A stretch of 25,573 bases of DNA, taken from positions 1 through 25,573 of IMG/VR virus record IMGVR_UViG_3300010361_000404; one strand, written 5' to 3'. The translations under genes were made by a program, and so were the position numbers. Under the pieces are notes generated by a model. That model was not told the DNA's origin, ran no database searches, and saw only the letters and a program-made list of their open reading frames with translations. Each line of letters starts with the position of its first letter. Positions within the stretch are counted from its first letter, which is position 1. Source of the DNA: a virus (lineage: Duplodnaviria > Caudoviricetes). This document shows, piece by piece, positions 4,346-25,573 of the stretch.

Positions 4346-6135
4346 GATGGGAAGTCTCCCCGCAGCAAATCCGCCTCAAGATTGCGCACCCACTCGTTGT
4401 GCCGCTCTAGCTCCTCGGGCGTGCTCGCCTCCACGGCACCGAGTGCCCACCGCTTCGCAGTGTTGATCCGCTTCATATATTCGCCGGGCATTTCGCGGGT
4501 CATCGCGCGCCCACGCTGAAGCCCAAGGCGCAACGCGAGACCGGCCACCTTGCGGGTGCGAGCCTTCAACCTGTCGCGTGCTTCTGCCTGCTGATAGGTC
4601 GCACTAAAGCGCTGATCGTTGCGTTGCTTGTATCGCAATGCCGCTTCGGCAGCGATGCGATCCGCTTCCGCGTCATCCAGGCCGCGCGCAAGCCCCGCGT
4701 CTTTCACCTCCCGCTTAACGAAGATGTATTCAGGGTCGCTCTGAATATCGATAAGGTTCACGTCGGTGATGTTGACCAGCGGCCCCGCCGGTATCGGCTG
4801 ATAGTCATTATCACGAGGCGTGCGCGGGTCGTCGTCATCATCATCCGGCAGCGTGCCAACATCACCGTTGGGCGCATCAATCGCTTTCATCACCTTACGG
4901 CCAACGAATTGCGCCCAAGGGCTCGCAGCATCGACATTGATATGCCCCTCAATATCGTGCCCTGCACGCGACAGGCGCCCGATTTGCTGCTTTGAGGTGT
5001 TATGAATTCCAGGCGAGTTAAGGAACGTGCATTCGGCAGCATCGCAGATATCGAGGCCCTCGCCGGCCATGCCGACGCTTACCAGAATGTGCAACATCCA
5101 AGGTCTGCGATTGGTGATCCTGTCCTTTGGTGGGCAGAAGCGTTCAAGCACAACGCGGTTATCGTCATCGCTGCGGCCATTGATGCCGGTGCCTACCCAG
5201 TCCACCGACATACCTTCAGGCATTAGAGCGCGTATCTGCTCGCACACCACCTGCGCATGTGAGCAGCACAAGGCATACACCACCATCTGTGCCTTGATGC
5301 CCTGGTCGGCATACAATGCAATCAAGCGCTCTATGGGATGCGTAATAAGCGGCGAGACATACTTGGGTGTCCACCGGGCCTTGCGCGCGGCAATCCATTT
5401 CTCAATATTGTCAGGTGAGGCGCCGGCTTCAGCGATAAGCTCCGAGACTGTAAACGAGATAACCTCGCCATCTGCCTTGCTTACGAAGTCGATGCGGTAA
5501 TCGTAACTGTGCAGGTGCAGCCGCTTGACCGCGCCCTCATCCACCGCCTGCTCGTAACTGATCGAGATATCCGGCGGGCCGAAAATTGGCTGCTCGCCCT
5601 TGCGATCCGGCGTAGCCGACATTGCGAGGAATGCGGCGCGCTTAATCTTGGCAACCTCACGTGTCCAAGCAGTATCGGTGCCATAATGGTGATACTCATC
5701 AATCACTAAAAACACGCGCTTGCCGCCAGTGATCTGCTGTACCGCAGCAACGGCCCTTTGGCTTTGCACGAGCGCCTGGACAGTGACGATAAACACCAGG
5801 GTGCCGTTGCGATACTGCTTCAGCGCGTGCACCACCCCGTCACCGATGTTGCATGATTGAGTAGTGACACCCAGCGCGGCAAGCTCACGCGGAATATCTT
5901 CGCCGGCTTGCGTGGCTTGCCCAACCTGCGGCACCACCACCAGCATGATATCCGCAGCATCGAGCGCGCGCAGGACCGCAAAGGCGGTCGCTGCGAGGCG
6001 CGTCTTGCCGTAGCCGGTGGGCAGCTTCACAACGGTGGTCAGCAGTCCATCCTTGAAGCGCTGGCACGCCTCCGCTTGCCCTCTGCGGAGGTCTTGGAAC
6101 GATGGCATTTCAGGCACAAAAGCTGAAGGTTCCAT
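4336..6135 (-). CDS. Superfamily 2 DExH-box helicase (ResIII-like), 599 aa
   Basis: Walker A LPTGYGKT, VIDEYHH, MSAT, VGMAGEGLD and QQIGRLSR motifs. Start re-called at MEPSAF, which follows RBS AAGGGAG; the frame is open up to 6294. Confidence 0.9.
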   Translation of the reverse strand: MEPSAFVPEMPSFQDLRRGQAEACQRFKDGLLTTVVKLPTGYGKTRLAATAFAVLRALDAADIMLVVVPQVGQATQAGEDIPRELAALGVTTQSCNIGDGVVHALKQYRNGTLVFIVTVQALVQSQRAVAAVQQITGGKRVFLVIDEYHHYGTDTAWTREVAKIKRAAFLAMSATPDRKGEQPIFGPPDISISYEQAVDEGAVKRLHLHSYDYRIDFVSKADGEVISFTVSELIAEAGASPDNIEKWIAARKARWTPKYVSPLITHPIERLIALYADQGIKAQMVVYALCCSHAQVVCEQIRALMPEGMSVDWVGTGINGRSDDDNRVVLERFCPPKDRITNRRPWMLHILVSVGMAGEGLDICDAAECTFLNSPGIHNTSKQQIGRLSRAGHDIEGHINVDAASPWAQFVGRKVMKAIDAPNGDVGTLPDDDDDDPRTPRDNDYQPIPAGPLVNITDVNLIDIQSDPEYIFVKREVKDAGLARGLDDAEADRIAAEAALRYKQRNDQRFSATYQQAEARDRLKARTRKVAGLALRLGLQRGRAMTREMPGEYMKRINTAKRWALGAVEASTPEELERHNEWVRNLEADLLRGDFPSWM

Positions 6136-14066: not shown

Positions 14067-14276
14067 CTAGCGGCTGGCAGGTGTGGCAGGTGCGGCCGGC
14101 TGGCCGGCGCCGTCTGGCGTGCTCTGCGGCGCCGCTGGTGGCCACGGCTCGCAGTGCACCACCGCGCGCAGTGCGAAGATGTAGCAAACCGGGTAGCCAA
14201 CCGGGTCGCAGCCGGAAAGCGGCAGCAGGATCGCGGCGAGCAGTAGCCGCCTAGATATACTGGCCGCCGCTGCCAA
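14067..14276 (-). CDS. Putative small proline-rich lipoprotein (69 aa)
   Basis: An in-frame TTG start gives MAAAASISRRLLLAAILLPLSG-C (basic residues, hydrophobic core, LSGC lipobox). The start position is uncertain. Confidence 0.5.
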   Translation of the reverse strand: MAAAASISRRLLLAAILLPLSGCDPVGYPVCYIFALRAVVHCEPWPPAAPQSTPDGAGQPAAPATPASR

Positions 14277-15288
14277 CGGTGCCCGGTGCGCTGCCAGGGA
14301 AAAACGTCGCTCCACCACCCCCGGTATTGATGATGCCGTTAAGGCTGGCGCTGTAACGCGGTCCAGATGCCGTGCCAGTAAAGTGGGTGTTCGCGGCGAT
14401 TGCTTGTATGAAACCCGAGCTTGCGGCAACGAAGCCATTTGCGAAAGCCGGTGTCCCGGAAAGCGTCACGGTCAGGCTGGCGCCTGAATAACTCACGATC
14501 GAGCCATACCCGGCCAGGATGTGAGACTGCGCCCCGCCGGCAATCGCATATGAGCTTAGGAAGGTGACGCTGCCGCCATCACCGAATGCGTGCTGGCCGG
14601 GGCAGGCGGCAAACGTCACTGCCCCCTCGACGGTTACGTTTGATGAGCCGGTGGCCACGATGCAGCACGCGGCATTGCCCAGCGTGTCGGTGCCCGTCCC
14701 TGTCATCTGAAAACCGGATATGCCGATAAAGGCGCCGTTGGAGGCCTCAAAGCAGTGCCCGTTGGTGACCGACACCACGCAATTGCCGGGCGCGCCGACA
14801 TTGCCGACAAAATTCACGGTATTGCCGGTGCCGTAGCCGAGTGGCGCGCCTGCTGCGAGCAGCCCTTGCGTATAGGTGCCATCGGCCACATTCACGATGA
14901 CGTTGTGACCGTTGAGGTCGATGTAGCCGACCACATTGTTCCAGGCATGTTGCAGGGTGCGCCACGCTGTCGCACTCGATTGCCCGTCGTTTGCATCGTT
15001 GCCGGTGGTCGAGACATAAAGGTTGAGGTTTGCGCTGAGTCTGTTACGCCCCAGCCGCTGGATTGCCTGAAGCAATTGGGTCCTGTCGCCCTTGTCCAGT
15101 GTCAGCCCAGCGGCAAGCACCACATTGGCCAGTTCCTCTTGCGTCATGTTGAGCCATTCGGCTTCAACTATGGTTGCATCAACACCGGCCGGTGGCGTGC
15201 CGCCGAAAAAATAGCTGTTGGGCTGCGGCCCCGGCGAGGTGGCCGTGGGCAGCGACGCAACGGCAGACGCATTGTCAATCCGATACAT
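14251..15288 (-). CDS. Tail fibre protein, Mu gpS-like N-terminal baseplate anchor (345 aa)
   Basis: MYRIDNASA...ATIVEAEWLNMTQEELANVVLAAGLTLDKGDRTQLLQAI, then LYVSTTGNDANDG...WRTLQHA (start of a beta-helix-type domain). RBS AAGGA. Confidence 0.85.
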   Translation of the reverse strand: MYRIDNASAVASLPTATSPGPQPNSYFFGGTPPAGVDATIVEAEWLNMTQEELANVVLAAGLTLDKGDRTQLLQAIQRLGRNRLSANLNLYVSTTGNDANDGQSSATAWRTLQHAWNNVVGYIDLNGHNVIVNVADGTYTQGLLAAGAPLGYGTGNTVNFVGNVGAPGNCVVSVTNGHCFEASNGAFIGISGFQMTGTGTDTLGNAACCIVATGSSNVTVEGAVTFAACPGQHAFGDGGSVTFLSSYAIAGGAQSHILAGYGSIVSYSGASLTVTLSGTPAFANGFVAASSGFIQAIAANTHFTGTASGPRYSASLNGIINTGGGGATFFPGSAPGTVGSGGQYI

Positions 15289-15481
15289 CGGTGGATTCCT
15301 TGTGAGACACCAGCATCCGCCGCTGGAGCTGCTCCATGAGCCGGTCAAACACCGGGCGCGATGTCTTGAGCGGCAATTCAGCAAGCCCCGCCAGCACCAC
15401 GTCCCATTCGCGCGCTTCGAGGTTGAGGTCGATGACAGCGTTAGGATGCAGCGGCTCATAACGTGGTGACATATCGTTCAT
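15275..15481 (-). CDS. Hypothetical protein (68 aa), possible fibre chaperone
   Basis: ATGA-coupled to the upstream gene; sequence LEAREWDVVLAGLAELPLKTSRPVFDRLMEQL. Confidence 0.65.
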   Translation of the reverse strand: MNDMSPRYEPLHPNAVIDLNLEAREWDVVLAGLAELPLKTSRPVFDRLMEQLQRRMLVSHKESTDVSD

Positions 15482-15750
15482 TCGTTTGGTTCCTGTTTGG
15501 TTGGCCGCAAGCCAGCAAGCTTGCGCACGTTCGCGACGCGCCGGCCTTCAGGGCCGGTTAGCGTGTCCCAGGCCATGTCGCAGATTTCACAATATGCTCG
15601 ATGCACCTGAGTGTTGGGATCGCTGTTAACGAGAGCACCATTGCCATCGTAAATAGGCGTCCATTCCTTGATGGGTTCAGCAATCGCCGAGAAATAAGTG
15701 ATGCGGCAGTCTTCGGGATTGGCGGGACATTGGGGATTAGGATCGGGCAT
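15478..15750 (-). CDS. Hypothetical Cys-containing protein (90 aa)
   Basis: CPANPEDC...CEIC motifs; starts 9 nt downstream of the tailspike stop. Confidence 0.65.
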   Translation of the reverse strand: MPDPNPQCPANPEDCRITYFSAIAEPIKEWTPIYDGNGALVNSDPNTQVHRAYCEICDMAWDTLTGPEGRRVANVRKLAGLRPTKQEPNE

Positions 15751-15759
15751 GTAAAACCC

Positions 15760-18700
15760 TCATGGCACGTTGTTGGCATAGACCATCGTTGGCCGTGTTG
15801 CGGGCAACGTGACGGTGCGCCCGCCGAATGAGTTGCCGGTGACGACATGCGCGCCATCGCTGACGATCTGCACGACCGGCCCGCTGCCGCCCGCCGCTGG
15901 CGCGAAGCGGTTATCAGTCAACGTTATGTAGGCGCCGGTATTGATCTGAAAGAACGGTTTGGTCGTCACGAGGCCGTTCGGGATATTGATCCGCATCCCG
16001 GTTGCCTGCACCTCGGTCGGGCCGTTCACCCCGAAAGCCTGCACGCCCAACATATCGGCGGGCATATCCCAGCGTCCGCCGACAATCTGGCAAACGATGA
16101 AGAATCCGGCGGCGGGCGATAGCAACAGGAAACCGTTAGTAAGCGCGACGGCAGCGAAGAACCAGGCATCACCAATTGTAATACGCCCGCCGCTCATAAC
16201 GATCGGATTGACGCTCGCGGACGCGGCAGTGAAATAGCAGCTTGCAAGCTGAATGTAGCCGTCCGTCATATTGATGCCGTTGGTCGTGTCGAAAGCGACA
16301 TTCGAGAATGTGCCGAATGTCGGGTTGCCGCTGCCATCGCGGGTCAGGATCATCCCCTGGCCGGTGTAGAATAAGCAGTTGGACACTTGCAGATCGTCAC
16401 AGCGCGCGGAGCGGATGCCGACCCCCCCAGTCGATCCTGACAGATAGATGGTCGTTTGGTTGGCGGTAAGCGTGTCAGGTTCAAAGCGGCAATTGTCAAC
16501 GGTAACGGTGTCGGCGGAACCGTTGATGTTTATGTGGTCGTTAAAGGCGGACAGTTCGCAATCGGCGATCGTCGTCCCGCCGGGATTGCCAAACAGCATG
16601 AATGCGGTCATTGCGGCGGTGATCTTCAGGCCACGAAAGAGCTGGCGCGCGGAATTGTTGGTGTAGAATGCCGGCGGATAATTCGTCAGGCTGCCTTTAA
16701 CCGTCGTGTCGGGTTGGATGAAGTTGATTGAGAAATCGCGGAACTGCGGCCCTGGCAGCAATAGCGAGCTGGTTACGAACACGCCGGTCGCCGACAGGTT
16801 GAACGTCGCGCCGATCTGGATCGCACTCGACACCTTGCCGTCGCCATAGATCAATTGCCCAGCCGCCGAGCAAGTTATCTGATCGAGGATAATGTAAGGC
16901 GTAGCCGAGTCAGGGATATGCACCGGCAAGCCGGTGGCGATCGCATTGCGAAATGCCGTTGTGTCGTTGGTCGTTCCGTCGCCTTTCGCGCCGAACCATT
17001 TGACCGACACCGGATCGCCGGCCATTTCGCGATACCAGCGGCGCCCGGAGGCATCGACGATGATCGTCCCGCCGTTGTCGGCGCTGGTGGTGTCGGTCGA
17101 GACATAGACGAACATGCCTTCGCCACCGTCCGCGTCGGCGGCATAGCCGCGCACCCAGATCGGCGTGACGCTCACCGTGGTGTTAGCGCGCAGTGCGGCA
17201 ATCGTCGCGAGCGGCACGACGGTGGTCCGATCGACATATTGTTTAGTGGCGCAACCAAGAGCATTAACTGGATCACCAGATAACAAAATTCCCGTTCCTG
17301 CTGGCATCGTTAAACCAGCAGTAGTCCACGGGAATACCACATTCCCATTAACAACCATGTTCAATGTGCCGCTAGTGATACTAAACCCATATGTCGTGCT
17401 AAACAGCGCAATGTGTTTTGATAAGTCTGTCGCGGTTGCGACTGTGCCGGTCGTGAAGTTCTGCCCGACAGTGGCGATGGTCACGCCACCATTAAAAGTT
17501 GTTAGTCCGGAACTACGAAGGATAGAGAGGGCATTCCCGAGACTAGTTCCGGTGTCACTGAACCGAGTGACGATTAAATCGCTCCCGGCATTAGAGCCGC
17601 CTTCAGCGCTAGCATTCGCGGTAATGCCCCATCGGTTCCCGCCTCCCGTGGTTTGAAGATAGAGGCTACGATTTGTGGCTGCGGGATTAGTGACGGTAAT
17701 CGCTCCGTTTGAAACATATAAATTGTAATTGGAGAAACCAACACGCCCCGATCCGAATCCTATGCCGCTGCTATAGCCTACGGGATTGAACTCGATGAAC
17801 CCTTGATCTGAAACGTCGGTCGTCAGCTGAATGCGCTTTGATGCTGTGGTCCAGCCGGTTCCGGCGGCGTTGCGCCATTCGATGACCCTTAGCTGCGAAC
17901 TATTGGTGTTCGAGTTCGAGGTCATTAACGTTTGCATCCAGCCAACAATCTGAATGCTCGCGCCGCTGGCGACGCCCGTGCTTGTGACGTTCGCGCTTAG
18001 TGTGATCGTCGTCGCATCAAAGGCGGTAATAACAGCGTTGTTCGGGATATTAGTCCCGTAGACATATTGCCCATTAGCGACGCCCGTTGTGGCGGCGAAG
18101 GTCAGCACGTTGCCGGAAGCGGTCGCGGCTGTTGTGACAAGTGTCTGCGGACCAGACTGATTAAGCTGATTCGTGTTGCCGAATCTGACCCCGTTCGTGG
18201 GATCACTAGAGTTTATGAGCCATGATGTATTTGTCCCGGTGACAGCGCCCGCGTTCAGCGTGACATTGCCGGTGCTTGACGTAGTCAGGCTGGCGCCAGC
18301 CGGGAACACCAAGCTGGTGCTAGTGAAAGGCCACGCTACGCCATTAGCAACGACATTCAACGTGTTGCTAGTGATGCTGAAACCAAAGGTCGTGGAAAAC
18401 AGCGCGATATGTCTGGACAGATCGGTCGCCCCGCCAGGGGCGACCGTGCCACCAAAACTTAACCCGCCGGACATAGCCCCGCCGGTCGTCAACAGTCCGC
18501 TGACGCCGGTCACGTCGGCACTGGTCAGCGTGACCGCGCCCGTGCGCGTGTTGAAACTCGACACGCTGCCAGCGAGGCCATTGTCCACATACTGTTTGGT
18601 GGCCGCACCCAATGCCGTCGTGGGGTCGGCTGCGAGTATCATCGACCCGGAAATCGTTACCGTTGTGTTGGTGATTCTTATCCCGCAAGCCCCCGTGTTG

Positions 18701-19107
18701 TTCCAAGTTGATAGGGATAAGACGCCGGTATTGATTGCGGAGCCGCTCGCCACAAGCGCCAGATCACCAGCGCGGTTGATCGCGTTAAATGATCCAGAAC
18801 TAATGTTCGGAATTAAAGCAACGCTGCCGTTCGCTCCCGCGTTCGCCGAGAACGCGGAGGTTGCGCTAGGGGCACTGGTATTTTGATTGACTCGAATGGT
18901 GCCGGTGACAGTGCCGCCTGTTAGCGGCAGAAAATTCCCGAGACCTCCGGCTGCAACGATCGAGGTCGCGTTGCCCCCGGTGTTGCCCTTGCCATACCAG
19001 AGCGTGTCGTCCTGCTCATTATAGGCAAGCTCGCTGGCGAACAACGAGGCCGGCGCACCTGCCGCACCACCGACAGCGCGGCGCCTGATGCGGATCGTAT
19101 CGACCAT
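15760..19107 (-). CDS. Tailspike / putative polysaccharide depolymerase (1115 aa)
   Basis: Mtd_N-like N-terminus (RIRRR...GAPASL...ELAYNE), ATKQYVD fibre repeats, and SVKWFGAKGDGTTNDTTAFRNAI starting a pectate-lyase-3-like beta-helix. Confidence 0.85.
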   Translation of the reverse strand: MVDTIRIRRRAVGGAAGAPASLFASELAYNEQDDTLWYGKGNTGGNATSIVAAGGLGNFLPLTGGTVTGTIRVNQNTSAPSATSAFSANAGANGSVALIPNISSGSFNAINRAGDLALVASGSAINTGVLSLSTWNNTGACGIRITNTTVTISGSMILAADPTTALGAATKQYVDNGLAGSVSSFNTRTGAVTLTSADVTGVSGLLTTGGAMSGGLSFGGTVAPGGATDLSRHIALFSTTFGFSITSNTLNVVANGVAWPFTSTSLVFPAGASLTTSSTGNVTLNAGAVTGTNTSWLINSSDPTNGVRFGNTNQLNQSGPQTLVTTAATASGNVLTFAATTGVANGQYVYGTNIPNNAVITAFDATTITLSANVTSTGVASGASIQIVGWMQTLMTSNSNTNSSQLRVIEWRNAAGTGWTTASKRIQLTTDVSDQGFIEFNPVGYSSGIGFGSGRVGFSNYNLYVSNGAITVTNPAATNRSLYLQTTGGGNRWGITANASAEGGSNAGSDLIVTRFSDTGTSLGNALSILRSSGLTTFNGGVTIATVGQNFTTGTVATATDLSKHIALFSTTYGFSITSGTLNMVVNGNVVFPWTTAGLTMPAGTGILLSGDPVNALGCATKQYVDRTTVVPLATIAALRANTTVSVTPIWVRGYAADADGGEGMFVYVSTDTTSADNGGTIIVDASGRRWYREMAGDPVSVKWFGAKGDGTTNDTTAFRNAIATGLPVHIPDSATPYIILDQITCSAAGQLIYGDGKVSSAIQIGATFNLSATGVFVTSSLLLPGPQFRDFSINFIQPDTTVKGSLTNYPPAFYTNNSARQLFRGLKITAAMTAFMLFGNPGGTTIADCELSAFNDHININGSADTVTVDNCRFEPDTLTANQTTIYLSGSTGGVGIRSARCDDLQVSNCLFYTGQGMILTRDGSGNPTFGTFSNVAFDTTNGINMTDGYIQLASCYFTAASASVNPIVMSGGRITIGDAWFFAAVALTNGFLLLSPAAGFFIVCQIVGGRWDMPADMLGVQAFGVNGPTEVQATGMRINIPNGLVTTKPFFQINTGAYITLTDNRFAPAAGGSGPVVQIVSDGAHVVTGNSFGGRTVTLPATRPTMVYANNVP

Positions 19108-21402
19108 TCAGAAGGTTCCGCAGTCGAGTGTAATGCCGTCGATTGTGCCGCCGGTGATCGCGACGGCGGTCGCATTCTGCGTTGACATGGTGCCTAGGCC
19201 GGTTATCGCGGTGGATGGAATTGTCGCGCTCGCGGTCATCGCGCCCGTGCCGTTGCCCTGGACATAGCCGGTCAGCGTTGCAGCTCCAGTGCCACCATAG
19301 GGCACCGTGACCATGGCGCCGTTCCAAGAGCCGACCGTGATCGTGCCAAGTGTGGTGATGGTGCTCTGGCCGACATAGGTCGCGGCAATATCAACCGAAG
19401 CGCCCACGGTGATGCGGTTCGCGGTGCCGACAACCGAGAGCACGTTGCCGGCTTTTGACAGACCGTTGCCGGCTGTGATCTGGCCGGCAGCGCTAAACTG
19501 CACCCAGGTGATCGGGGTGGTGCCAAGCGTGCCGCCGGGGTCGGACGAGCAAAGCCAGCCGGTGTCGGCGTTGACGGTGCCCTGCTCGATGAAGACATAG
19601 GTGGCCGGGACCTCGGACCAATTGTTCATATCCGCCGAGCGCGTCCAGGCGCCGGCCGCGACGACATAAATACCATTGTTCGCTGCGGTGGTCTGATCCT
19701 TGACCAAAACGCGACTGCCGGCGACGAGGGCCACGCCATCGATGGTTTGCGTGCCCGAGAGTGTGATATTCGCGCCAACGGTCGCGGCGAGACACGCCTG
19801 CGAAGCATTCAGTCCTAAAATGGAATTATCAACATAGTTTTTGGTCGCTGCATCTTGCGGGTTAACGGGATCGAGCAGGTTCTGCAGGGCCTGATTGTTC
19901 CAGCTCACCGCAGCGGTCGGCACGGCTTGCTGATCCTGCCGAACACTCATCGCAAACTGTGTCGTCGCCAATGTCGTGTTGTTGGTGCCCGAGGCTTGCG
20001 TAATGCCGGTGGTGCCGGTCGGCAGCGACGGTGTGCCGGTAAACACTGGCGACGCGAGCGGCGCATAACCGGAGATGGTGGCGCCGGCTGGAATGGTGAC
20101 AACGCCCGTAAATGTGGGGTTATTGATCGGTGCGCGCGAGGTGTCGGTGGGGTGCACATGGTCGCCGCGCGCGTATGTCGCCAATACGCCCGTCGCCGCA
20201 GCGCCGTCCATGATTGGCGTTGTCGAGGACGCAACGGGCACCTGCGCGATGACGAAGGCGGTGGTCGCAATCTGCGTGGTGTTGGTGCCGACCGTCGCAG
20301 TAGGTGCCAGCGGTATGCCGGTGAAGCTGGGGGACGCTATCGGTGCCGCGCCGAGCAGCGTCATCACCTGCGCAACGGTAAGATCGGCCGCGTTCGCGGT
20401 GGCGCCAGTATTGTTACCCTTCAGCGTGTTGGTTGCCATCTGCGCGGCGAGCGCATTGGTGATGCCGTTGGTGGCGACGCTGACGGTCACCGCACCAGTG
20501 CCGCCACCTGTTAGGCCGGTGCCAGCGGTCACCGAGGTGACCCCGGTGGCGAGACCCGACACCACGCTTTGCACAAAAGCGGTGGTGGCAATCTGCGTGG
20601 TGTTGGTCGTCGAGATAGGGGTGGGCGCGGCGGGAATGCCGGTGAATGTCGGCGAGGCAAGCGGCGCATAACCGCTGATCGATGCGCCGGCTGGGATGGT
20701 GACAGTGCCAGTGAAGGTTGGCGAGGCAAGCGGCGCTGCGCCCAGCAACGTCATCGCTTGCGCAGCGGTCAGGTCGGCCGCGTTCGCTGTCGAGACAGAG
20801 TTATTCCCCTTCAGCGTCATGGTCGGCATCTGCGCGGCGAGTGCGTTGGTGATGCCGTTGGTGGCGACACTGACGGTCACCGCACCAGTGCCGCCACCTG
20901 TCAGCCCAGCACCGGCCGTGACCGATGTCACACCAACGTTGACCGCGCTAATGGCGCTGGTCACAAATTGCGTGGTGGCAAGCTGCGTCGTGTTGGTGCC
21001 GGCCGTCGCGGTGGGTGCGGCAGGCACGCCCGTGAACGTTGGCGAAGCAAGCGGCGCATAACCGCTGATCGAGGCGCCGGTCGGGATCGTCACCACGCCC
21101 GTGAATGTCGGACTGTTAATCGGTGCGCGCGAGGTGTCGGTGGGGTGCACATGGTCACCACGCGCCCACAGCGCCGCGCTGCCGGCCGATGCGGCGCCGT
21201 TCATCGCTGGATTGCTGGTGTAGGCGAGGCCCTGGCCGGCTATCGGCGCGATGACGCTCGCGCTGCCACCGCTGCCGCCCGTGCCCTCGCCGTAATAGAG
21301 CGTATGGTCCACCTCGTTATAGGCAAGCTCCGCGTTCGCCAGCGATGCCGGCGCGCCGGGTAGGCCGGTGACGCGGCGACGGATGCGGAGCGTGTCGGCC
21401 AT
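19108..21402 (-). CDS. Repeat-rich tail fibre protein (764 aa)
   Basis: Same Mtd_N-like N-terminus, multiple APLASPTFTG.P.APT...NTTQ.ATT.FV repeats, an ITLSGTQTIDGVALVAGSRVLVKDQT...NGIYVV...WTRSAD domain, and a LDCGTF C-terminus. Confidence 0.88.
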   Translation of the reverse strand: MADTLRIRRRVTGLPGAPASLANAELAYNEVDHTLYYGEGTGGSGGSASVIAPIAGQGLAYTSNPAMNGAASAGSAALWARGDHVHPTDTSRAPINSPTFTGVVTIPTGASISGYAPLASPTFTGVPAAPTATAGTNTTQLATTQFVTSAISAVNVGVTSVTAGAGLTGGGTGAVTVSVATNGITNALAAQMPTMTLKGNNSVSTANAADLTAAQAMTLLGAAPLASPTFTGTVTIPAGASISGYAPLASPTFTGIPAAPTPISTTNTTQIATTAFVQSVVSGLATGVTSVTAGTGLTGGGTGAVTVSVATNGITNALAAQMATNTLKGNNTGATANAADLTVAQVMTLLGAAPIASPSFTGIPLAPTATVGTNTTQIATTAFVIAQVPVASSTTPIMDGAAATGVLATYARGDHVHPTDTSRAPINNPTFTGVVTIPAGATISGYAPLASPVFTGTPSLPTGTTGITQASGTNNTTLATTQFAMSVRQDQQAVPTAAVSWNNQALQNLLDPVNPQDAATKNYVDNSILGLNASQACLAATVGANITLSGTQTIDGVALVAGSRVLVKDQTTAANNGIYVVAAGAWTRSADMNNWSEVPATYVFIEQGTVNADTGWLCSSDPGGTLGTTPITWVQFSAAGQITAGNGLSKAGNVLSVVGTANRITVGASVDIAATYVGQSTITTLGTITVGSWNGAMVTVPYGGTGAATLTGYVQGNGTGAMTASATIPSTAITGLGTMSTQNATAVAITGGTIDGITLDCGTF
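20126..21156. repeat. Internal direct repeats in the fibre gene (390-bp tandem duplication; 38-bp exact repeat 993 bp apart)
   Basis: 20438-20511 is nearly identical to 20828-20901. ATCGGTGCGCGCGAGGTGTCGGTGGGGTGCACATGGTC occurs at 20126 and 21119. Confidence 0.85.
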
Positions 21403-21840
21403 TTAGAAATTCCCCCCATCGAGCACGTCGCCATCGAGGGCGAGCACGGGCGACCAGGTGCTGTTTTTGCGGCCGTATGATGTGCTGTTAGCCGGCGCGT
21501 CAGGCAGGCTGGAGCGTGCTTGCAAATCCTCGATTTCCTGCTTCGCGAACATGAAATTATCCCTCACGGATTGCGTGGTTGGCGTGCCGTAAACCGGATA
21601 AGCGGGATTGATCTGCGAGGTGTATTGCGTAGGCGCGGGCGGTGGTGGTGCCGCCACCTCTGTGACGGCTGGTGCACGAGGTTGCAGCCGGTCGGTCTGT
21701 GGTGGCGCCTCTGGCGTGGCACGCGCGATGTATGGCCGGCGACGCTGCCGCTTTGCAGGCGCAGCCGGCGCGTGCGTGGTGGCCGGCAGCGGCGGGCGCG
21801 AGGATGGTGGAGCTGGCCGGCGCCTTGTGCGTGTTCTCAT
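21403..21840 (-). CDS. Putative fibre adaptor: disordered N-terminus, short coiled coil, fibritin-foldon-like motif, C-terminal LDGGNF (145 aa)
   Basis: SVRDNFMFAKQEIEDLQAR followed by LPDAPANSTSYGRKNSTW, comparable to the T4 foldon IPEAPRDGQAYVRKDGEW. ATGA-coupled to gp48. Confidence 0.65.
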   Translation of the reverse strand: MRTRTRRRPAPPSSRPPLPATTHAPAAPAKRQRRRPYIARATPEAPPQTDRLQPRAPAVTEVAAPPPPAPTQYTSQINPAYPVYGTPTTQSVRDNFMFAKQEIEDLQARSSLPDAPANSTSYGRKNSTWSPVLALDGDVLDGGNF

Positions 21841-22502
21841 ATGCCCTTATCCCACGGCTCTGATTCACCTGCGTCCCAGATCGAGGCGCCGCGATCCCAC
21901 ACGGTGCCGGCACCAAATCGCCAGATCACATTGGTATGCGCTGGCGCGTAGCGCTCGATTAGGCAGATCAGTGTTTGATTGCCCCACGATGCCAGCGGCT
22001 CGCCGGCAGTCGATATGCCGGCGCGGAAATACACCACCGTGGTTGTCGGCGCCGTCACTCGCCAGTAATAGGTCCACTCGCTGCTATAAACACGGTCGCC
22101 GGCTCGATTGACGCCTGCGCGGAACGGCGCGAATTGCTCGATGGTGATCTGATAGCCGGCCGCTGCCGCAAGATCGATGAAATACTGCACGCTCTGGCCA
22201 CCGCGCGCGCTGAATTTAGCACATACCGCCTGCTGCCTTTGCTGGATCGTGTCCAGCTCGCCGATGCAGGAATCTGGCAGCCCTAATGAGGCTTCCCATT
22301 CCGGCAGCAATTCGGTGGTGGAGCAGGGAAATATCTGCGCGATAAGATCGTTTAGCCGGCCGTGCAGCCGCGCCCATTGCGGCATGAGGGTGAGCAGCAA
22401 TTGATCTTGCAGCGTGCCCCAGCCGCGATGCCAGATGCGCCCGCGAGGCAGCAGCCGCTGGAATTGCCAGAGGTAATCGGACGCGCTGTAGACCGGGAGC
22501 AC
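21837..22502 (-). CDS. Baseplate wedge protein, Mu gp48 / YmfQ (DUF2313) family (221 aa)
   Basis: DYLWQFQRLLPRGRIW...TTELLPEWEASLGLPDSC...GGQSVQYFIDLA...LIERYAPAHT. GTG start overlaps the gp47 stop. Confidence 0.92.
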   Translation of the reverse strand: MLPVYSASDYLWQFQRLLPRGRIWHRGWGTLQDQLLLTLMPQWARLHGRLNDLIAQIFPCSTTELLPEWEASLGLPDSCIGELDTIQQRQQAVCAKFSARGGQSVQYFIDLAAAAGYQITIEQFAPFRAGVNRAGDRVYSSEWTYYWRVTAPTTTVVYFRAGISTAGEPLASWGNQTLICLIERYAPAHTNVIWRFGAGTVWDRGASIWDAGESEPWDKGI

Positions 22503-23614
22503 TAGCTGACCGTGAGAGTGCCCATCACCGGCAGCGATCCTGTCGGCAGCACCACCTCTGCGGTGGGCGAGGCGACGGTAAAATGATTGATGCCGGGGGT
22601 GCTCAAAATCGCCTCGTAGATATCTGACGGATAGATGGTGCCGCTCACCTGTCCGACAGCAGCCAGCATGTCGCTGATCGATGCCGTGATTTCGGCTTGC
22701 ATGTCGCTGGTGTTTGGATCGAGCGTCAGCAGCGACACATCGATGGCGTGTGGCACTGGTGCGGCGACATACACCAGCGCGGTCACCGGCTGTCGGGTCC
22801 AGAGATAGTTGGCAACGGTGAGCTGATCGCCCGTCGCGACCGGCCCGCGTGTCTCGGCTGTCGCGCAACCATCGGTGCCCTGGGGAAAGCCACCACTGGC
22901 CGCGTTGGCATCATCAAACATTGGATAGACCACGACGGTGCCTGGACCCCAGCCATTCGGCAGCACCCAGGCGCGTGTGCACCCCGGCACCTCGGTGGCC
23001 CATTCGATATAGTCGGCAGCGGCGCCGCCCTGCGGTGGGTCGCGATAGCGGAGCAGCATCCGCGTGCGCAATTCGTCGTTGGTTTCCTGATCGGCGCCGC
23101 CCGTTGTCGGCTGCGTGGTGATGCCGGCGGAATTCACGCCGGGGACGGGTGACGATATCGAGATAGCGGTGCCCGCCGCACAGTTGGTCGCGGCACCAGA
23201 CACCTGCGCCGTCATAGGCACCACCACGGTGCCGGTGGCGTCCAGCGTGCCATCGGCCGTGGTGGCGTATGGCGTGCCGTCCTGGCGCACCAGAGGCGTG
23301 CCAGCCGGCATGATAACGGTGGGCTGGCCGGTAAACTGCGCGAAGCCGGAAGCCGGCGAGGCATCTTTGCGGGTGATGCCGACAAGCGCGGCCCATGCCT
23401 CCAGATATTCGTCGGTCGCGGTGAACGGCACGCCCATGCGGGCGATCCAGTCAGCGTAGCCATAGACCGAATACGCCAGCCCCGACATGCACCACGCGAG
23501 CACACGCAGCACCGCGTTTCGCAGCAAGCCATCGAGGCCCGGCACACCGCTGGTGGTGATATCCTGCACTGCCTGATTGCGCAGCGCAGTGAGCGTCGGT
23601 CGCGCGAAAGGCAT
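22502..23614 (-). CDS. Baseplate J / Mu gp47 family protein
   Basis: MPFARPTLTALR...GGADQETNDELRTRML...PPQGGAAADYIEWATEVPGCTRAWV...GPGTVVV. Confidence 0.95.
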   Translation of the reverse strand: MPFARPTLTALRNQAVQDITTSGVPGLDGLLRNAVLRVLAWCMSGLAYSVYGYADWIARMGVPFTATDEYLEAWAALVGITRKDASPASGFAQFTGQPTVIMPAGTPLVRQDGTPYATTADGTLDATGTVVVPMTAQVSGAATNCAAGTAISISSPVPGVNSAGITTQPTTGGADQETNDELRTRMLLRYRDPPQGGAAADYIEWATEVPGCTRAWVLPNGWGPGTVVVYPMFDDANAASGGFPQGTDGCATAETRGPVATGDQLTVANYLWTRQPVTALVYVAAPVPHAIDVSLLTLDPNTSDMQAEITASISDMLAAVGQVSGTIYPSDIYEAILSTPGINHFTVASPTAEVVLPTGSLPVMGTLTVS

Positions 23615-24210
23615 TAGCGGCGCACCCTACTGACAGGTGGCAAGAGCAGCATCTGCGGGGCCGGCGTGCCGATGGTGAGCGTGGCGAGATTGTCCCACGC
23701 CCAGGCATAGGTGAATCGCGTCATGGTGCTGTCAGGCTTGGTGATGATGACAAGAATGCCCAGGAACGTGCTGCCCACGGCATTGCCCAGCCATTGCGTG
23801 TCCACCTCGATGCTCTGCGCCACGCCATCGTCAATCAGCCATTGCAAAGCATCGGCCGTATAGCGGCGCGCCAGTCCCAGCGTGTCGCGGGTTTTCTTGG
23901 CGCGCTCCAACTGCCAGAGATTCGAACCTAGCGGCAGATCGTTATACGGATCGGCCCACCAGCCGCGCCGATCGCTGGTGCCGTCTGTCGGCGCAAAATC
24001 CGGTGTCGCCAGCTTGTCGGTGAATAGTGAGACAAGGCAGGCGGTTTCTAAATCCTGCCCGGTCTGCAAATCGCCTAGCGCCAGCACCCAGTCGCCCAGC
24101 GTATTGAGATTGTCCCAGAGCACCAGCACATCGCCGCTGGCGTTTGCCGCCGGCAGCACGGCATCGGGCACCACCAGGGGGAGGCCGAGCGCCTCGATCC
24201 AGCCGCTCAT
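23614..24210 (-). CDS. Mu gp46-family baseplate protein
   Basis: DLETACLVSLFTD...RRGWWAD...LGSNLWQLERAK...ALQWLIDDGVA. Confidence 0.93.
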   Translation of the reverse strand: MSGWIEALGLPLVVPDAVLPAANASGDVLVLWDNLNTLGDWVLALGDLQTGQDLETACLVSLFTDKLATPDFAPTDGTSDRRGWWADPYNDLPLGSNLWQLERAKKTRDTLGLARRYTADALQWLIDDGVAQSIEVDTQWLGNAVGSTFLGILVIITKPDSTMTRFTYAWAWDNLATLTIGTPAPQMLLLPPVSRVRR

Positions 24211-24746
24211 GTGCCTGCCTCTGGCGGATCGGTCGGCTGCTCACCGTCGCCGCGTGAGTCGCTGCCTTGGGTGTGCCGGTGCGTCTGCAAGCCCACCTGA
24301 TCGCTGCCGCCATAGCCGGCGATGACGGCGCCTTGCACGTGCAGATCACCAGTCACCACCACCAGCGGCGCATCGATGGTGACGGTGCCGGTGGTGGTAA
24401 TATCGATGTGGTGATTGCGATGCAGTGCAATGGTGTCGCCTTCATCGGTGTAGATCACCACCTCGCCCTGCTTGGTGTCGCGCGGCCGCGCGCTCGGATC
24501 ATTGGTGGCCACGGCAATGCCCCTGGAGCGGTCGCCGGTCACGAAAAGCACATGCGCATGGGCTGATGGCTTGGCGTGCGAGGCGAAGCCGTAAAGCTGC
24601 ATCACCGGCACCCCGTCGAGCATTTCGCGCGGTGTCAGGTGGATCTGCACGCGGTGGATGCCGTCGCTGTCATCGGTGGCGTGGATGACGCCCACCGCAT
24701 TCATCATGTTCGCCTTGCGCAGAATGCGCTCTTGATTGCTGCTCAT
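24207..24746 (-). CDS. Baseplate spike, Mu gp45 / gpV family
   Basis: QLYGFASH...GDRSRGIAVA...GEVVIY, with a C-terminal HRH metal-binding tip motif. Confidence 0.92.
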   Translation of the reverse strand: MSSNQERILRKANMMNAVGVIHATDDSDGIHRVQIHLTPREMLDGVPVMQLYGFASHAKPSAHAHVLFVTGDRSRGIAVATNDPSARPRDTKQGEVVIYTDEGDTIALHRNHHIDITTTGTVTIDAPLVVVTGDLHVQGAVIAGYGGSDQVGLQTHRHTQGSDSRGDGEQPTDPPEAGT

Positions 24747-25573
24747 GCCAGCGAGGTGCCGCCGCTGGAGTCTGGCACTGGCGTGGTGCTCTGCTTCGTG
24801 GGGTTGTTTTTCTCGATATCCTGCACGAATGGCGGGATCGCATTAAGCGATGCCGGCTCGGGCAAGAAAGCCTCTTTTGGCATCATGGTGAGCTTGGCGT
24901 GCTGGCCGTTTTCATCGCGCACGTATGACACGCCACCGATGATCCAGGGCGGGTCCGGCCGATCGAGCTTCAGCGCGGCCGCGCCGATCGGCGCGGAGTG
25001 ATTCGGCGCCCACAGCTTGCCTGCGGTGTCGCGCCAAGCGTCAATCGAGACGTTCAATTGCTGCGATCTGCCATAGCGCCGATTGCATTCCCACTGCGCG
25101 CGCTGCGCGGCGAGGCTCTGGCCGTCGCTCATCTGCTCACTGACCACGAAGCGCACGCGCTTGCGTGGCACCTTGTCGTCATAGGCGATTGGCCCGATGC
25201 GCGGATCGTTGAGGTTGCCTTGCACACCGACTTGCTGCACCGACAGAAAGAAACCCTCGTATTCGCTGAAGCGCTGATCCATCGAATAGGCGATATCGGC
25301 TTCCTCGATGTTCTGTCCCAGCGCCACACCGGAAGCCATCGCCTCGCTGCCGGCTTGCGCTAGCACCAGCGAGCCGTCGGGCATGTCATAGGCGACGAAG
25401 CCGGATACGCGGATCAGCCGGTCGGCCACGTCCCACACGGTCTCGCCGATGTTGATATTGAACCCTGGCACCTGCGCGCCGTCGCCGGCCAGCGAGGTGA
25501 TGGTGACGGCATATTTTTCGGCCAGCGCCTGCAAGATGGAAAGCGCGCTGCCGCCTTTGATCTGCATCGAGGG
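24743..25573 (-). CDS. Baseplate hub, Mu gp44 (gpP) family; probably 5'-truncated by the window edge
   Basis: INIGETVWDVADRL...DQRFSEY...AQRAQWECNRRYGRS...WRDTAGKLWAPN; lies directly upstream of gp45. Confidence 0.9.
   Translation of the reverse strand, partial: PSMQIKGGSALSILQALAEKYAVTITSLAGDGAQVPGFNINIGETVWDVADRLIRVSGFVAYDMPDGSLVLAQAGSEAMASGVALGQNIEEADIAYSMDQRFSEYEGFFLSVQQVGVQGNLNDPRIGPIAYDDKVPRKRVRFVVSEQMSDGQSLAAQRAQWECNRRYGRSQQLNVSIDAWRDTAGKLWAPNHSAPIGAAALKLDRPDPPWIIGGVSYVRDENGQHAKLTMMPKEAFLPEPASLNAIPPFVQDIEKNNPTKQSTTPVPDSSGGTSLA

Follow-up and report, generated by a model that had tools for sequence, protein, structure and literature searches.

The window, i.e., the whole stretch of DNA analysed (25,573 nucleotides of the Caudoviricetes record IMGVR_UViG_3300010361_000404), carries on its minus strand three ORFs, 21840-21403, 21402-19108, and 19107-15760, which follow one another with zero gap in one frame and code for proteins of 145 aa (stop TAA), 764 aa (stop TGA), and 1115 aa. 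The letters bear out the junctions quoted in the initial annotation, CTC GAT GGG GGG AAT TTC TAA ATG GCC GAC ACG for joint 1 (LDGGNF-stop-MADT) and CTC GAC TGC GGA ACC TTC TGA ATG GTC GAT ACG for joint 2 (LDCGTF-stop-MVDT). The C-terminal pentapeptide D-x-G-x-F (D-x-G-x-F/Y in counts) is called peg here, and the N-terminal domain of about 50 residues is called socket. The features are as follows.

21403..21840, minus strand: adaptor, 145 aa, with a Pro/Arg-rich first ~70 aa, a putative virion-anchor domain and a C-terminal peg
21520..21621, minus strand: putative virion-anchor domain, adaptor aa 74-107
21406..21420, minus strand: peg 1, DGGNF, with a GGGGGG run in its codons, 9 nt before the next ATG
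19108..21402, minus strand: middle fibre shaft, 764 aa, with PHROG tail-fibre matches and internal repeats, socket at the start and peg at the end
21235..21402, minus strand: socket 1, aa ~1-56, a small beta domain of T4 gp37-N or remote Mtd_N type
19330..19800, minus strand: domain in the middle shaft homologous to the solved 'capsid decoration protein' PDB 9NX3 (E 1.8e-9)
19111..19125, minus strand: peg 2, DCGTF, end of the 764-aa shaft
15760..19107, minus strand: terminal protein, 1115 aa, with socket, fibre shaft and predicted beta-helix tailspike, no peg
18940..19107, minus strand: socket 2, aa ~1-56, only beta strands in an AlphaFold2 monomer
16258..17010, minus strand: predicted right-handed beta-helix, pectate-lyase-like, depolymerase candidate by Pfam and PHROG matches
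21837..25567, minus strand: Mu-like baseplate genes gp44, gp45, gp46, baseplate J and gp48 (context)
14251..15288, minus strand: separate tail fibre (345 aa when counted from MYRID) that lacks both peg and socket (context)

Both upstream proteins end in a peg and, as had been claimed, the two downstream proteins share their first domain (52% identity over 66 aa); the 145-aa protein lacks the socket-type domain, and the 1115-aa protein contains no D-x-G-x-F/Y anywhere in its sequence. In ATGA, the start codon of the adaptor and the stop codon of the wedge gene, which is Mu gp48-like, overlap. Relatives of its anchor domain form the extreme N-terminus of full-length fibres elsewhere (P0159, P0161, P0163, and P0168) and also of an 84-aa peg-ended adaptor (locus L010), which suggests the anchoring role. 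The decoration-like domain of the middle shaft also matches PHROG 2647 'head decoration'; the literature search found no publication accompanying PDB 9NX3. The tail fibre at 14251..15288 stands outside the three-protein chain.

The terminal protein had been labeled a depolymerase, and family matches are in favor of this assignment, i.e., Pfam Beta_helix and pectate-lyase-like domains (E 4e-5, below curated cut-offs) and PHROG 4250 EPS depolymerase (E 2.5e-14, aa 632-722), so that the label stands as a prediction. A single-sequence fold of the tip domain gave an unusable model (pLDDT 37.7). The tip of the chain would thus be a sugar-cutting enzyme, as predicted from these families.

As for the sockets, the label 'Mtd_N-like' holds as remote homology. 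PF18454 (Mtd_N) matches neither the window domains nor any of 66 close members; in a wider alignment, it matches 12 of the 124 members at E<=0.1. The socket family (alignment A1) aligns with Mtd-type domains (HHalign 85%, E 6e-6; alignment A5 holds five bridging rows), whereas the N-terminus of T4 gp37 is closer (HHalign 94.8%, E 5e-8, 37 columns). Members of the family match the PHROG 'long tail fiber distal subunit', and tblastn with a more divergent member finds gp37 genes of cultured phages, although the socket of the window itself gave no match there. The AlphaFold2 monomer of socket 2 (pLDDT 88.9) retrieves HylP and Mtd as top rows of a fold search, at weak scores (Foldseek E ~1; by VIA Z 2.8-2.9, rmsd 2.7-4.2 Å, 42-55 residues aligned, for the monomer only). 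Another weak VIA match, crAss001 chain j, is part of the gp29 dimer bound to the capsid and was discarded.

A survey of phage genomes, proposed with the initial annotation, shows that peg and socket co-occur in both directions far above chance. A peg-ended gene precedes 109 of 115 socket starts (62 of 67 distinct ones), and 130 of 147 distinct starts from three socket subfamilies follow a motif-ended gene, whereas the motif is present on only 14 of 945 other long ORF ends. Conversely, DGGTF-stop matches end long ORFs in 120 of 120 cases, and the next gene starts with a socket in 96 of these, or in 101 with a wider profile; for DGGNF-stop matches this is so in 41 of 48. A control pattern of equal composition gave three matches against an estimated ~410, and none of the three had a socket next. 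Exceptions are six of the 115 socket starts without an adjacent peg, 19-24 of the 120 DGGTF genes without a detected socket next, and gp25 and gp26 of crAss001, which start HylP-like and lie behind genes ending without the motif. The exact layout of the window is found in 40 of 80 loci and a longer chain in five more, and the terminal proteins of chains end without the motif.

The subtype of the peg tracks the downstream domain, being G plus F/Y in 74/74 cases for the socket family of the window and aromatic plus aliphatic in 38/41 for Mtd-type domains; among distinct Mtd-type starts, 41 of 48 follow a related end, mostly D/N-aromatic-G-x-aliphatic. The tails that carry DGGN[F/Y]-type pegs fall into eight groups unrelated to one another, and some of the proteins ending in a peg are fusions with a central spike. 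Natural fusions of the kind sought exist as well, since 7 of 150 single proteins contain an internal socket, with an I-D/S-G/A remnant just before it in five of the seven. The socket family comprises 27,584 clusters at 50% identity, and the pairing, judged from sequence, recurs across very many phages, Limnohabitans phage DC31 being a cultured carrier; we found no paper that names the motif.

Because a gp37-like start is combined with a five-residue tail, the three proteins likely snap together in a row in the manner of gp36 and gp37. We therefore consider it probable that the window encodes a T4-type serial appendage, in which separately translated proteins are joined end to end in gene order by docking of the peg in a gp37-N-type socket. 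The three genes would be translated as anchor-adaptor, shaft, and predicted tailspike, with translational coupling as the most likely meaning of the zero gaps, and at each joint the C-terminal D-x-G-x-F peg of one trimer would dock into the next one's N-terminal domain. Direct contact between peg and socket, the trimeric state, and a strict order are all presumed here, and gene adjacency alone does not prove assembly order. The chain would form a second appendage alongside the phage's own peg-less tail fibre and, on balance, seems to hang from the baseplate, with neck or capsid as alternatives (the gene context examined is that of this one contig).

The plug-and-socket part of the initial proposal is thus backed by the two-way co-occurrence and by the homologous gp36-gp37 junction of T4; this backing does not extend to its stop-readthrough alternative. 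An assembly in which pegs bind sockets without order, giving mixed (adaptor-tip, adaptor-shaft-tip, shaft polymers) or branched appendages, seems unlikely to us. Sockets 1 and 2 are 52% identical, and the middle protein carries both ends and could in principle self-chain. However, first joints have DGGNF and second joints DxG[T/S/V/I]F; among 49 distinct pairs of consecutive joints, Asn occupies peg position 4 in 47 first pegs and in no second peg. Socket 1 has an Asn two residues N-terminal of a conserved Glu, and in peg-first scans Asn is found at this socket position in 17 of 24 DGGNF cases versus 3 of 69 DGGTF cases. In favor of unordered binding, this apparent N-to-N matching is lost after correction for kinship, as co-evolution of peg Asn and socket Asn was not shown (three independent pairs, starred branches, p 1) on a quick tree of 55 columns with few supported branches. 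The N/T asymmetry is a possible order code, and kinship could explain it equally well.

It is considerably less probable still that D-x-G-x-F caps its own protein for trimerisation or folding, the neighbour docking on the fibre end broadly and the pairing reflecting shared operons. Fibres often fold from the C-terminus, and seven strict-motif ORF ends have no detected socket behind them, but the motif is absent from chain-terminal proteins, and the peg subtype follows the downstream subfamily (74/74 and 38/41) while the tails that carry it are unrelated.

That the DGG codons are kept because the next gene uses them as its Shine-Dalgarno sequence, with the peptide as a by-product, had been named as an explanation that would overturn the proposal, and we give it very little credence. 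Among tight junctions, 26 of 41 have an SD-like word (GGAG, GAGG, GGGGG) within the peg codons, against 1 of 26 among wide junctions (Fisher p 5e-7), and junction 1 of the window has GGGGGG. Yet the peptide is kept at gaps of 20-126 nt (66 of 196 junctions) and without any SD-like word at 25 of 26 wide junctions, all synonymous codons occur in pegs with the pairs for Asp and Phe used about equally, and D, G, and F are retained at junction 2 (TGC GGA), where the SD is poor. The peg codons thus double as ribosome-binding site at tight junctions only; the wide-gap junctions refute this function as sole cause, and it accounts for the choice of codons at tight junctions, not for the peptide.

Programmed readthrough into a fusion of up to 2026 aa (145+764+1115+2, a length that checks out) is not supported and seems to us highly improbable. 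In its favor, only one stop separates the in-frame genes at each window joint, and natural proteins with internal sockets exist (7/150). However, among 196 distinct junctions the gap, ranging from -4 to 126 nt, is zero in only 13 and the frame is kept without a second stop in only 31, both joints are in frame in none of 28 distinct related two-joint chains, two stops, TAA and TGA, which both end ordinary genes in the contig, would have to be suppressed, and the contig has no tRNA gene. The common reading frame of the window genes is not a conserved feature. Frameshifting was likewise dropped, because the scarcity of +1-frame gaps in a first sample (1/62) shrank in the larger set (30/196) and a stop closes 40 of the 112 junctions in the minus-one frame.

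Beyond the serial appendage itself, peg and socket may, tentatively, form a portable general connector that joins T4 gp36-gp37, the BPP-1 fibre and Mtd, and HylP, with an orthogonal address directing DGGNF to Asn sockets and DxG[T/S/V]F to others. If this were true, the sequence would spell out the order of assembly, and one could wire fibres by exchanging pentapeptides. A five-residue peg makes T4 joining and Mtd attachment testable by one small deletion, fibre wiring would become readable from gene ends in very many unannotated phage genes, and protein design would gain from the pair a minimal connector between trimers.

Fibre proteins are already known to assemble in series in T4, and end-to-end joining is textbook knowledge for this phage. 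To this the window adds, for a small Mu-like phage, a chain with two joints, and also the N/T asymmetry that sets first joints apart from second ones. In T4, trimeric gp36 binds with its C-terminal end to the N-terminus of trimeric gp37 (PMC3004832, PMC9603124), and the portions of these papers available to us do not name the terminal peptide as binding element. T4 gp36 ends in DFGYY, 8 nt before gp37, and relatives end in DFGTF and DFGTY. The likeness therefore comprises adjacent genes, an upstream D-x-G-x-aromatic end, and a homologous downstream N-terminus. When the PDB was searched by sequence with profiles of socket and tail, no structure of such a joint came up; for the distal rod of T4, a map is listed as EMD 57037 (10.64898/2026.03.06.709160). 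Of the complete T4 long tail fibre (gp34-gp35-gp36-gp37), gp34, the gp35 kneecap, and the gp36 body (PF03903, which T4 gp36 itself matches) have no Pfam/PHROG match among the window proteins scanned. In T4, which has one joint of this kind, F stands at peg position 2; the window phage has two joints in series with G or C at that position, together with a short anchor-adaptor and a tip predicted to be a beta-helix.

BPP-1 Mtd/Bbp9 and streptococcal HylP resemble the window by remote homology to the socket and as top, weakly scoring rows of the fold search. The N-terminal beta-prism of Mtd is presumed to attach to the fibre (PMC10743442), and excerpts of reviews on T4 fibre joining and Mtd attachment give a binding element for neither. 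The BPP-1 fibre Bbp9 has the C-terminus ADLGGIA, and mtd follows after 15 nt; pegs of the Mtd type finish with an aliphatic residue and have 0-2 extra residues, whereas those of the window end in F. Receptor-binding proteins of K1E, K1-5, and SP6 also attach by a short conserved terminal element (PMC5380687, as far as its consulted part describes it), in that a conserved N-terminal spike peptide binds a large adapter with two sites in a branched arrangement. In the window, in contrast, the likely arrangement is a serial one, in which the peptide is C-terminal and binds to an N-terminal domain.

The series of three fibre genes, in which a C-terminal D-x-G-x-F/Y motif (peg) precedes an N-terminal domain of about 50 residues (socket) on the next protein, is a real feature of this phage. 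Read from the window sequence, its three ORFs abut without a gap in a single frame and carry the junction and terminal motifs described in the initial annotation.

21840-21403, minus strand: adaptor of 145 aa, ending in peg 1 (DGGNF)
21402-19108, minus strand: shaft protein of 764 aa, from socket 1 to peg 2 (DCGTF)
19330-19800, minus strand: shaft-protein domain homologous to the solved capsid decoration protein 9NX3
19107-15760, minus strand: tip protein of 1115 aa, beginning with socket 2
17428-17718, minus strand: tip residues 464-560, matching PDB 8OJN "cell wall surface anchor family protein" (E 7.8e-8), which we take to be a Bdellovibrio fibre domain

Besides genes for an integrase, RecT, and a helicase, this phage fragment carries a Mu-like baseplate set (gp44, gp45, gp46, baseplate J, and gp48). 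The gp48-like wedge gene flanks the three chain genes on one side; on the other is a further fibre gene (15288-14251), which is not part of the chain and has neither peg nor socket motif. The interval from the tip gene to this peg-less fibre (15275-15750) holds two short ORFs, of 90 and 68 aa, which have no Pfam match and are possibly assembly factors. At the contig end, positions 29-907 encode a protein of secreted type whose C-terminal motif resembles PEP-CTERM (Pfam E 8e-6); its neighbours are a repeat protein rich in proline (747-1358) and an HNH gene.

Among the top 80 of at least 403 relatives confirmed in IMG/VR, including L001, a near-copy of the window, a motif-ended ORF lies at most 150 nt upstream of 109/115 socket starts (62/67 once near-duplicates are removed), 6/115 being without an adjacent peg. 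The sample was widened by 33 loci of the T4 gp37 type and by the top 80 of 380 Mtd-type loci. When the motif is relaxed to [DN]xGx[FYLIVM] plus 0-2 residues, and starts less than 200 nt from a locus edge are excluded, it precedes 130 of 147 distinct socket starts in three subfamilies (74/81 window-type, 15/18 T4 gp37-type, and 41/48 Mtd-type), against a background of 14/945 other ORF ends (at least 120 codons) in the same loci. In the reverse direction, a DNA pattern for DGGTF-stop gave 120 loci of an estimated 410 or so, all of them ends of long open frames, and a socket start (at least 12 bits) follows within about 160 nt in 96. A wider socket profile, built partly from these loci, finds a socket next in 101/120, so that about one sixth to one fifth of DGGTF genes have no socket detected next. 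DGGNF-stop matched 48 loci, 45 at ORF ends and 41 with a socket, whereas the equal-composition control DAATF-stop matched three, none with a socket. The co-occurrence across phage genomes envisaged in the initial annotation is thus borne out in both directions. Natural fusions, whose existence it had raised, do occur: a set of 150 representative proteins includes 7 sockets in internal position, and five of these sockets follow an I-D/S-G/A remnant, the expected outcome of fused joints. The loose motif ends only 13 of these 150 socket proteins, so most of them are tips or fragments. At E<=0.001 the wide profile collects 27,584 clusters (50% identity). Exceptions include crAss001 gp25 and gp26, which have HylP-like beginnings, yet the preceding genes end without the motif, and the cultured Limnohabitans phage DC31, whose first peg is the variant IESGQY, without Asp. 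The three-gene layout is also seen in two cultured phages (L368:4246-6654 and L370:4854-7324). From sequence, we infer that the peg probably contacts the socket that follows it.

Alternatively, the DGG codons might be purely a ribosome-binding site. Shine-Dalgarno-like words do lie inside the peg codons at 26/41 tight junctions compared with 1/26 wide ones, and therefore peg codons double as ribosome-binding sites where the next gene is close; the peptide, however, persists where the next gene is far, and every synonymous codon occurs in pegs, which argues against a purely translational role. Stop readthrough is disfavoured by the gaps at 196 distinct junctions (-4 to 126 nt; zero in 13, at least 20 nt in 66), of which 31 keep the frame and lack a second stop, by 0/28 distinct two-joint chains with both joints in frame, by ordinary genes of the contig ending with TAA as well as TGA, and by the lack of a tRNA gene on the contig, so that the common frame in the window appears as a by-product of tight coupling.

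Within the peg-socket chain, adaptor residues 74-107 form a domain that elsewhere stands at the extreme N-terminus, both of full-length fibres (4 of 17 matches inspected) and of an 84-aa DGGNF-ended protein of locus L010, likewise downstream of baseplate wedge genes; it presumably serves as virion anchor. The first 70 or so residues (21622-21840) are Pro/Arg-rich and of low complexity. Homologues of the anchor domain begin at the position of residue 74; the window lacks a start codon there. In a scan of 110 proteins, the genes next to the adaptors of relatives were those for portal, capsid, head closure, spike, or baseplate, and since these neighbours differ, the site at which the chain attaches varies among phages. 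Central-spike-type proteins (PF18352/PF06890) with an extra tail ending in DGGNF (L003:1914-3674, L004:4661-6001, and L027:4889-5998) point to the central spike as a possible mounting site of the chain in those phages. An LtfC-like/PHROG 1084 gene immediately precedes the adaptor in six scanned loci (L009, L023, L032, L038, L059, and L069; for example L009:5117-5758 and L038:5268-5606), and none does so directly in the window.

The 764-aa protein is a fibre shaft rich in repeats, and its 9NX3-like domain could either fasten the chain to the head or represent a domain reused in the shaft. As the C-terminal part of the tip is a predicted β-helix (Pfam, below cut-off; PHROG "EPS depolymerase"), this protein is a candidate EPS depolymerase.

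Peg position 4 is Asn in 47/49 first pegs and 0/49 second pegs of 49 distinct consecutive-joint pairs, a sample picked for resemblance to socket 1, that of the shaft protein; 34 Asn pegs spread over eight unrelated tail groups. In peg-first samples, Asn stands two residues before the conserved Glu of the socket in 17/24 DGGNF versus 3/69 DGGTF cases, and the window agrees, its socket 1 having N there and its socket 2 having A. As 39/41 Asn pegs belong to one supported socket clade and a test of independent pairs was uninformative, a code for joint order in these residues is a live hypothesis rather than a result.

Literature searches found no phage paper on the motif or mechanism, although supplements or subscription papers on T4 and BPP-1 structures could describe the joint. 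No solved joint turned up when the PDB was searched by sequence, and the available part of a preprint (10.64898/2026.03.06.709160) lists a map, without coordinates, for the T4 distal rod. The initial annotation had called the socket Mtd_N-like. This stands as a remote profile link (E 6e-6 to the Mtd-type alignment A5, which includes five bridging rows); the window sockets have no Pfam match, and T4 gp37 appears to be the closer kin. PF18454 (Mtd_N) is matched by 12/124 wide-family members, the single Mtd sequence gives no match (E 0.48 and 0.065), and another profile comparison is partly circular. HylP and Mtd rank top in fold searches with weak scores. In BPP-1 (L082), Bbp9 (4599-6125, minus strand) ends in ADLGGIA and has internal peg-like words at residues 200 (YDFGSI) and 424 (IDYGDL). 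According to the accessible text of PMC2408619, each BPP-1 fibre carries two Mtd trimers, and one may speculate that the internal pegs account for them.

The socket family aligns with the N-terminus of T4 gp37 (HHalign 94.8%, E 5e-8), and peg subtype tracks socket subfamily. T4 gp36 ends in DFGYY, 8 nt before gp37, with DFGTF or DFGTY in relatives, and the portions available of PMC3004832 and PMC9603124 describe binding of the trimeric gp36 C-terminal end to the N-terminal region of gp37. Serial fibre assembly is thus already known from T4, whereas the literature accessible to us yielded nothing on a portable pentapeptide of this kind, on how widely it occurs, or on the asymmetry between the two joints.
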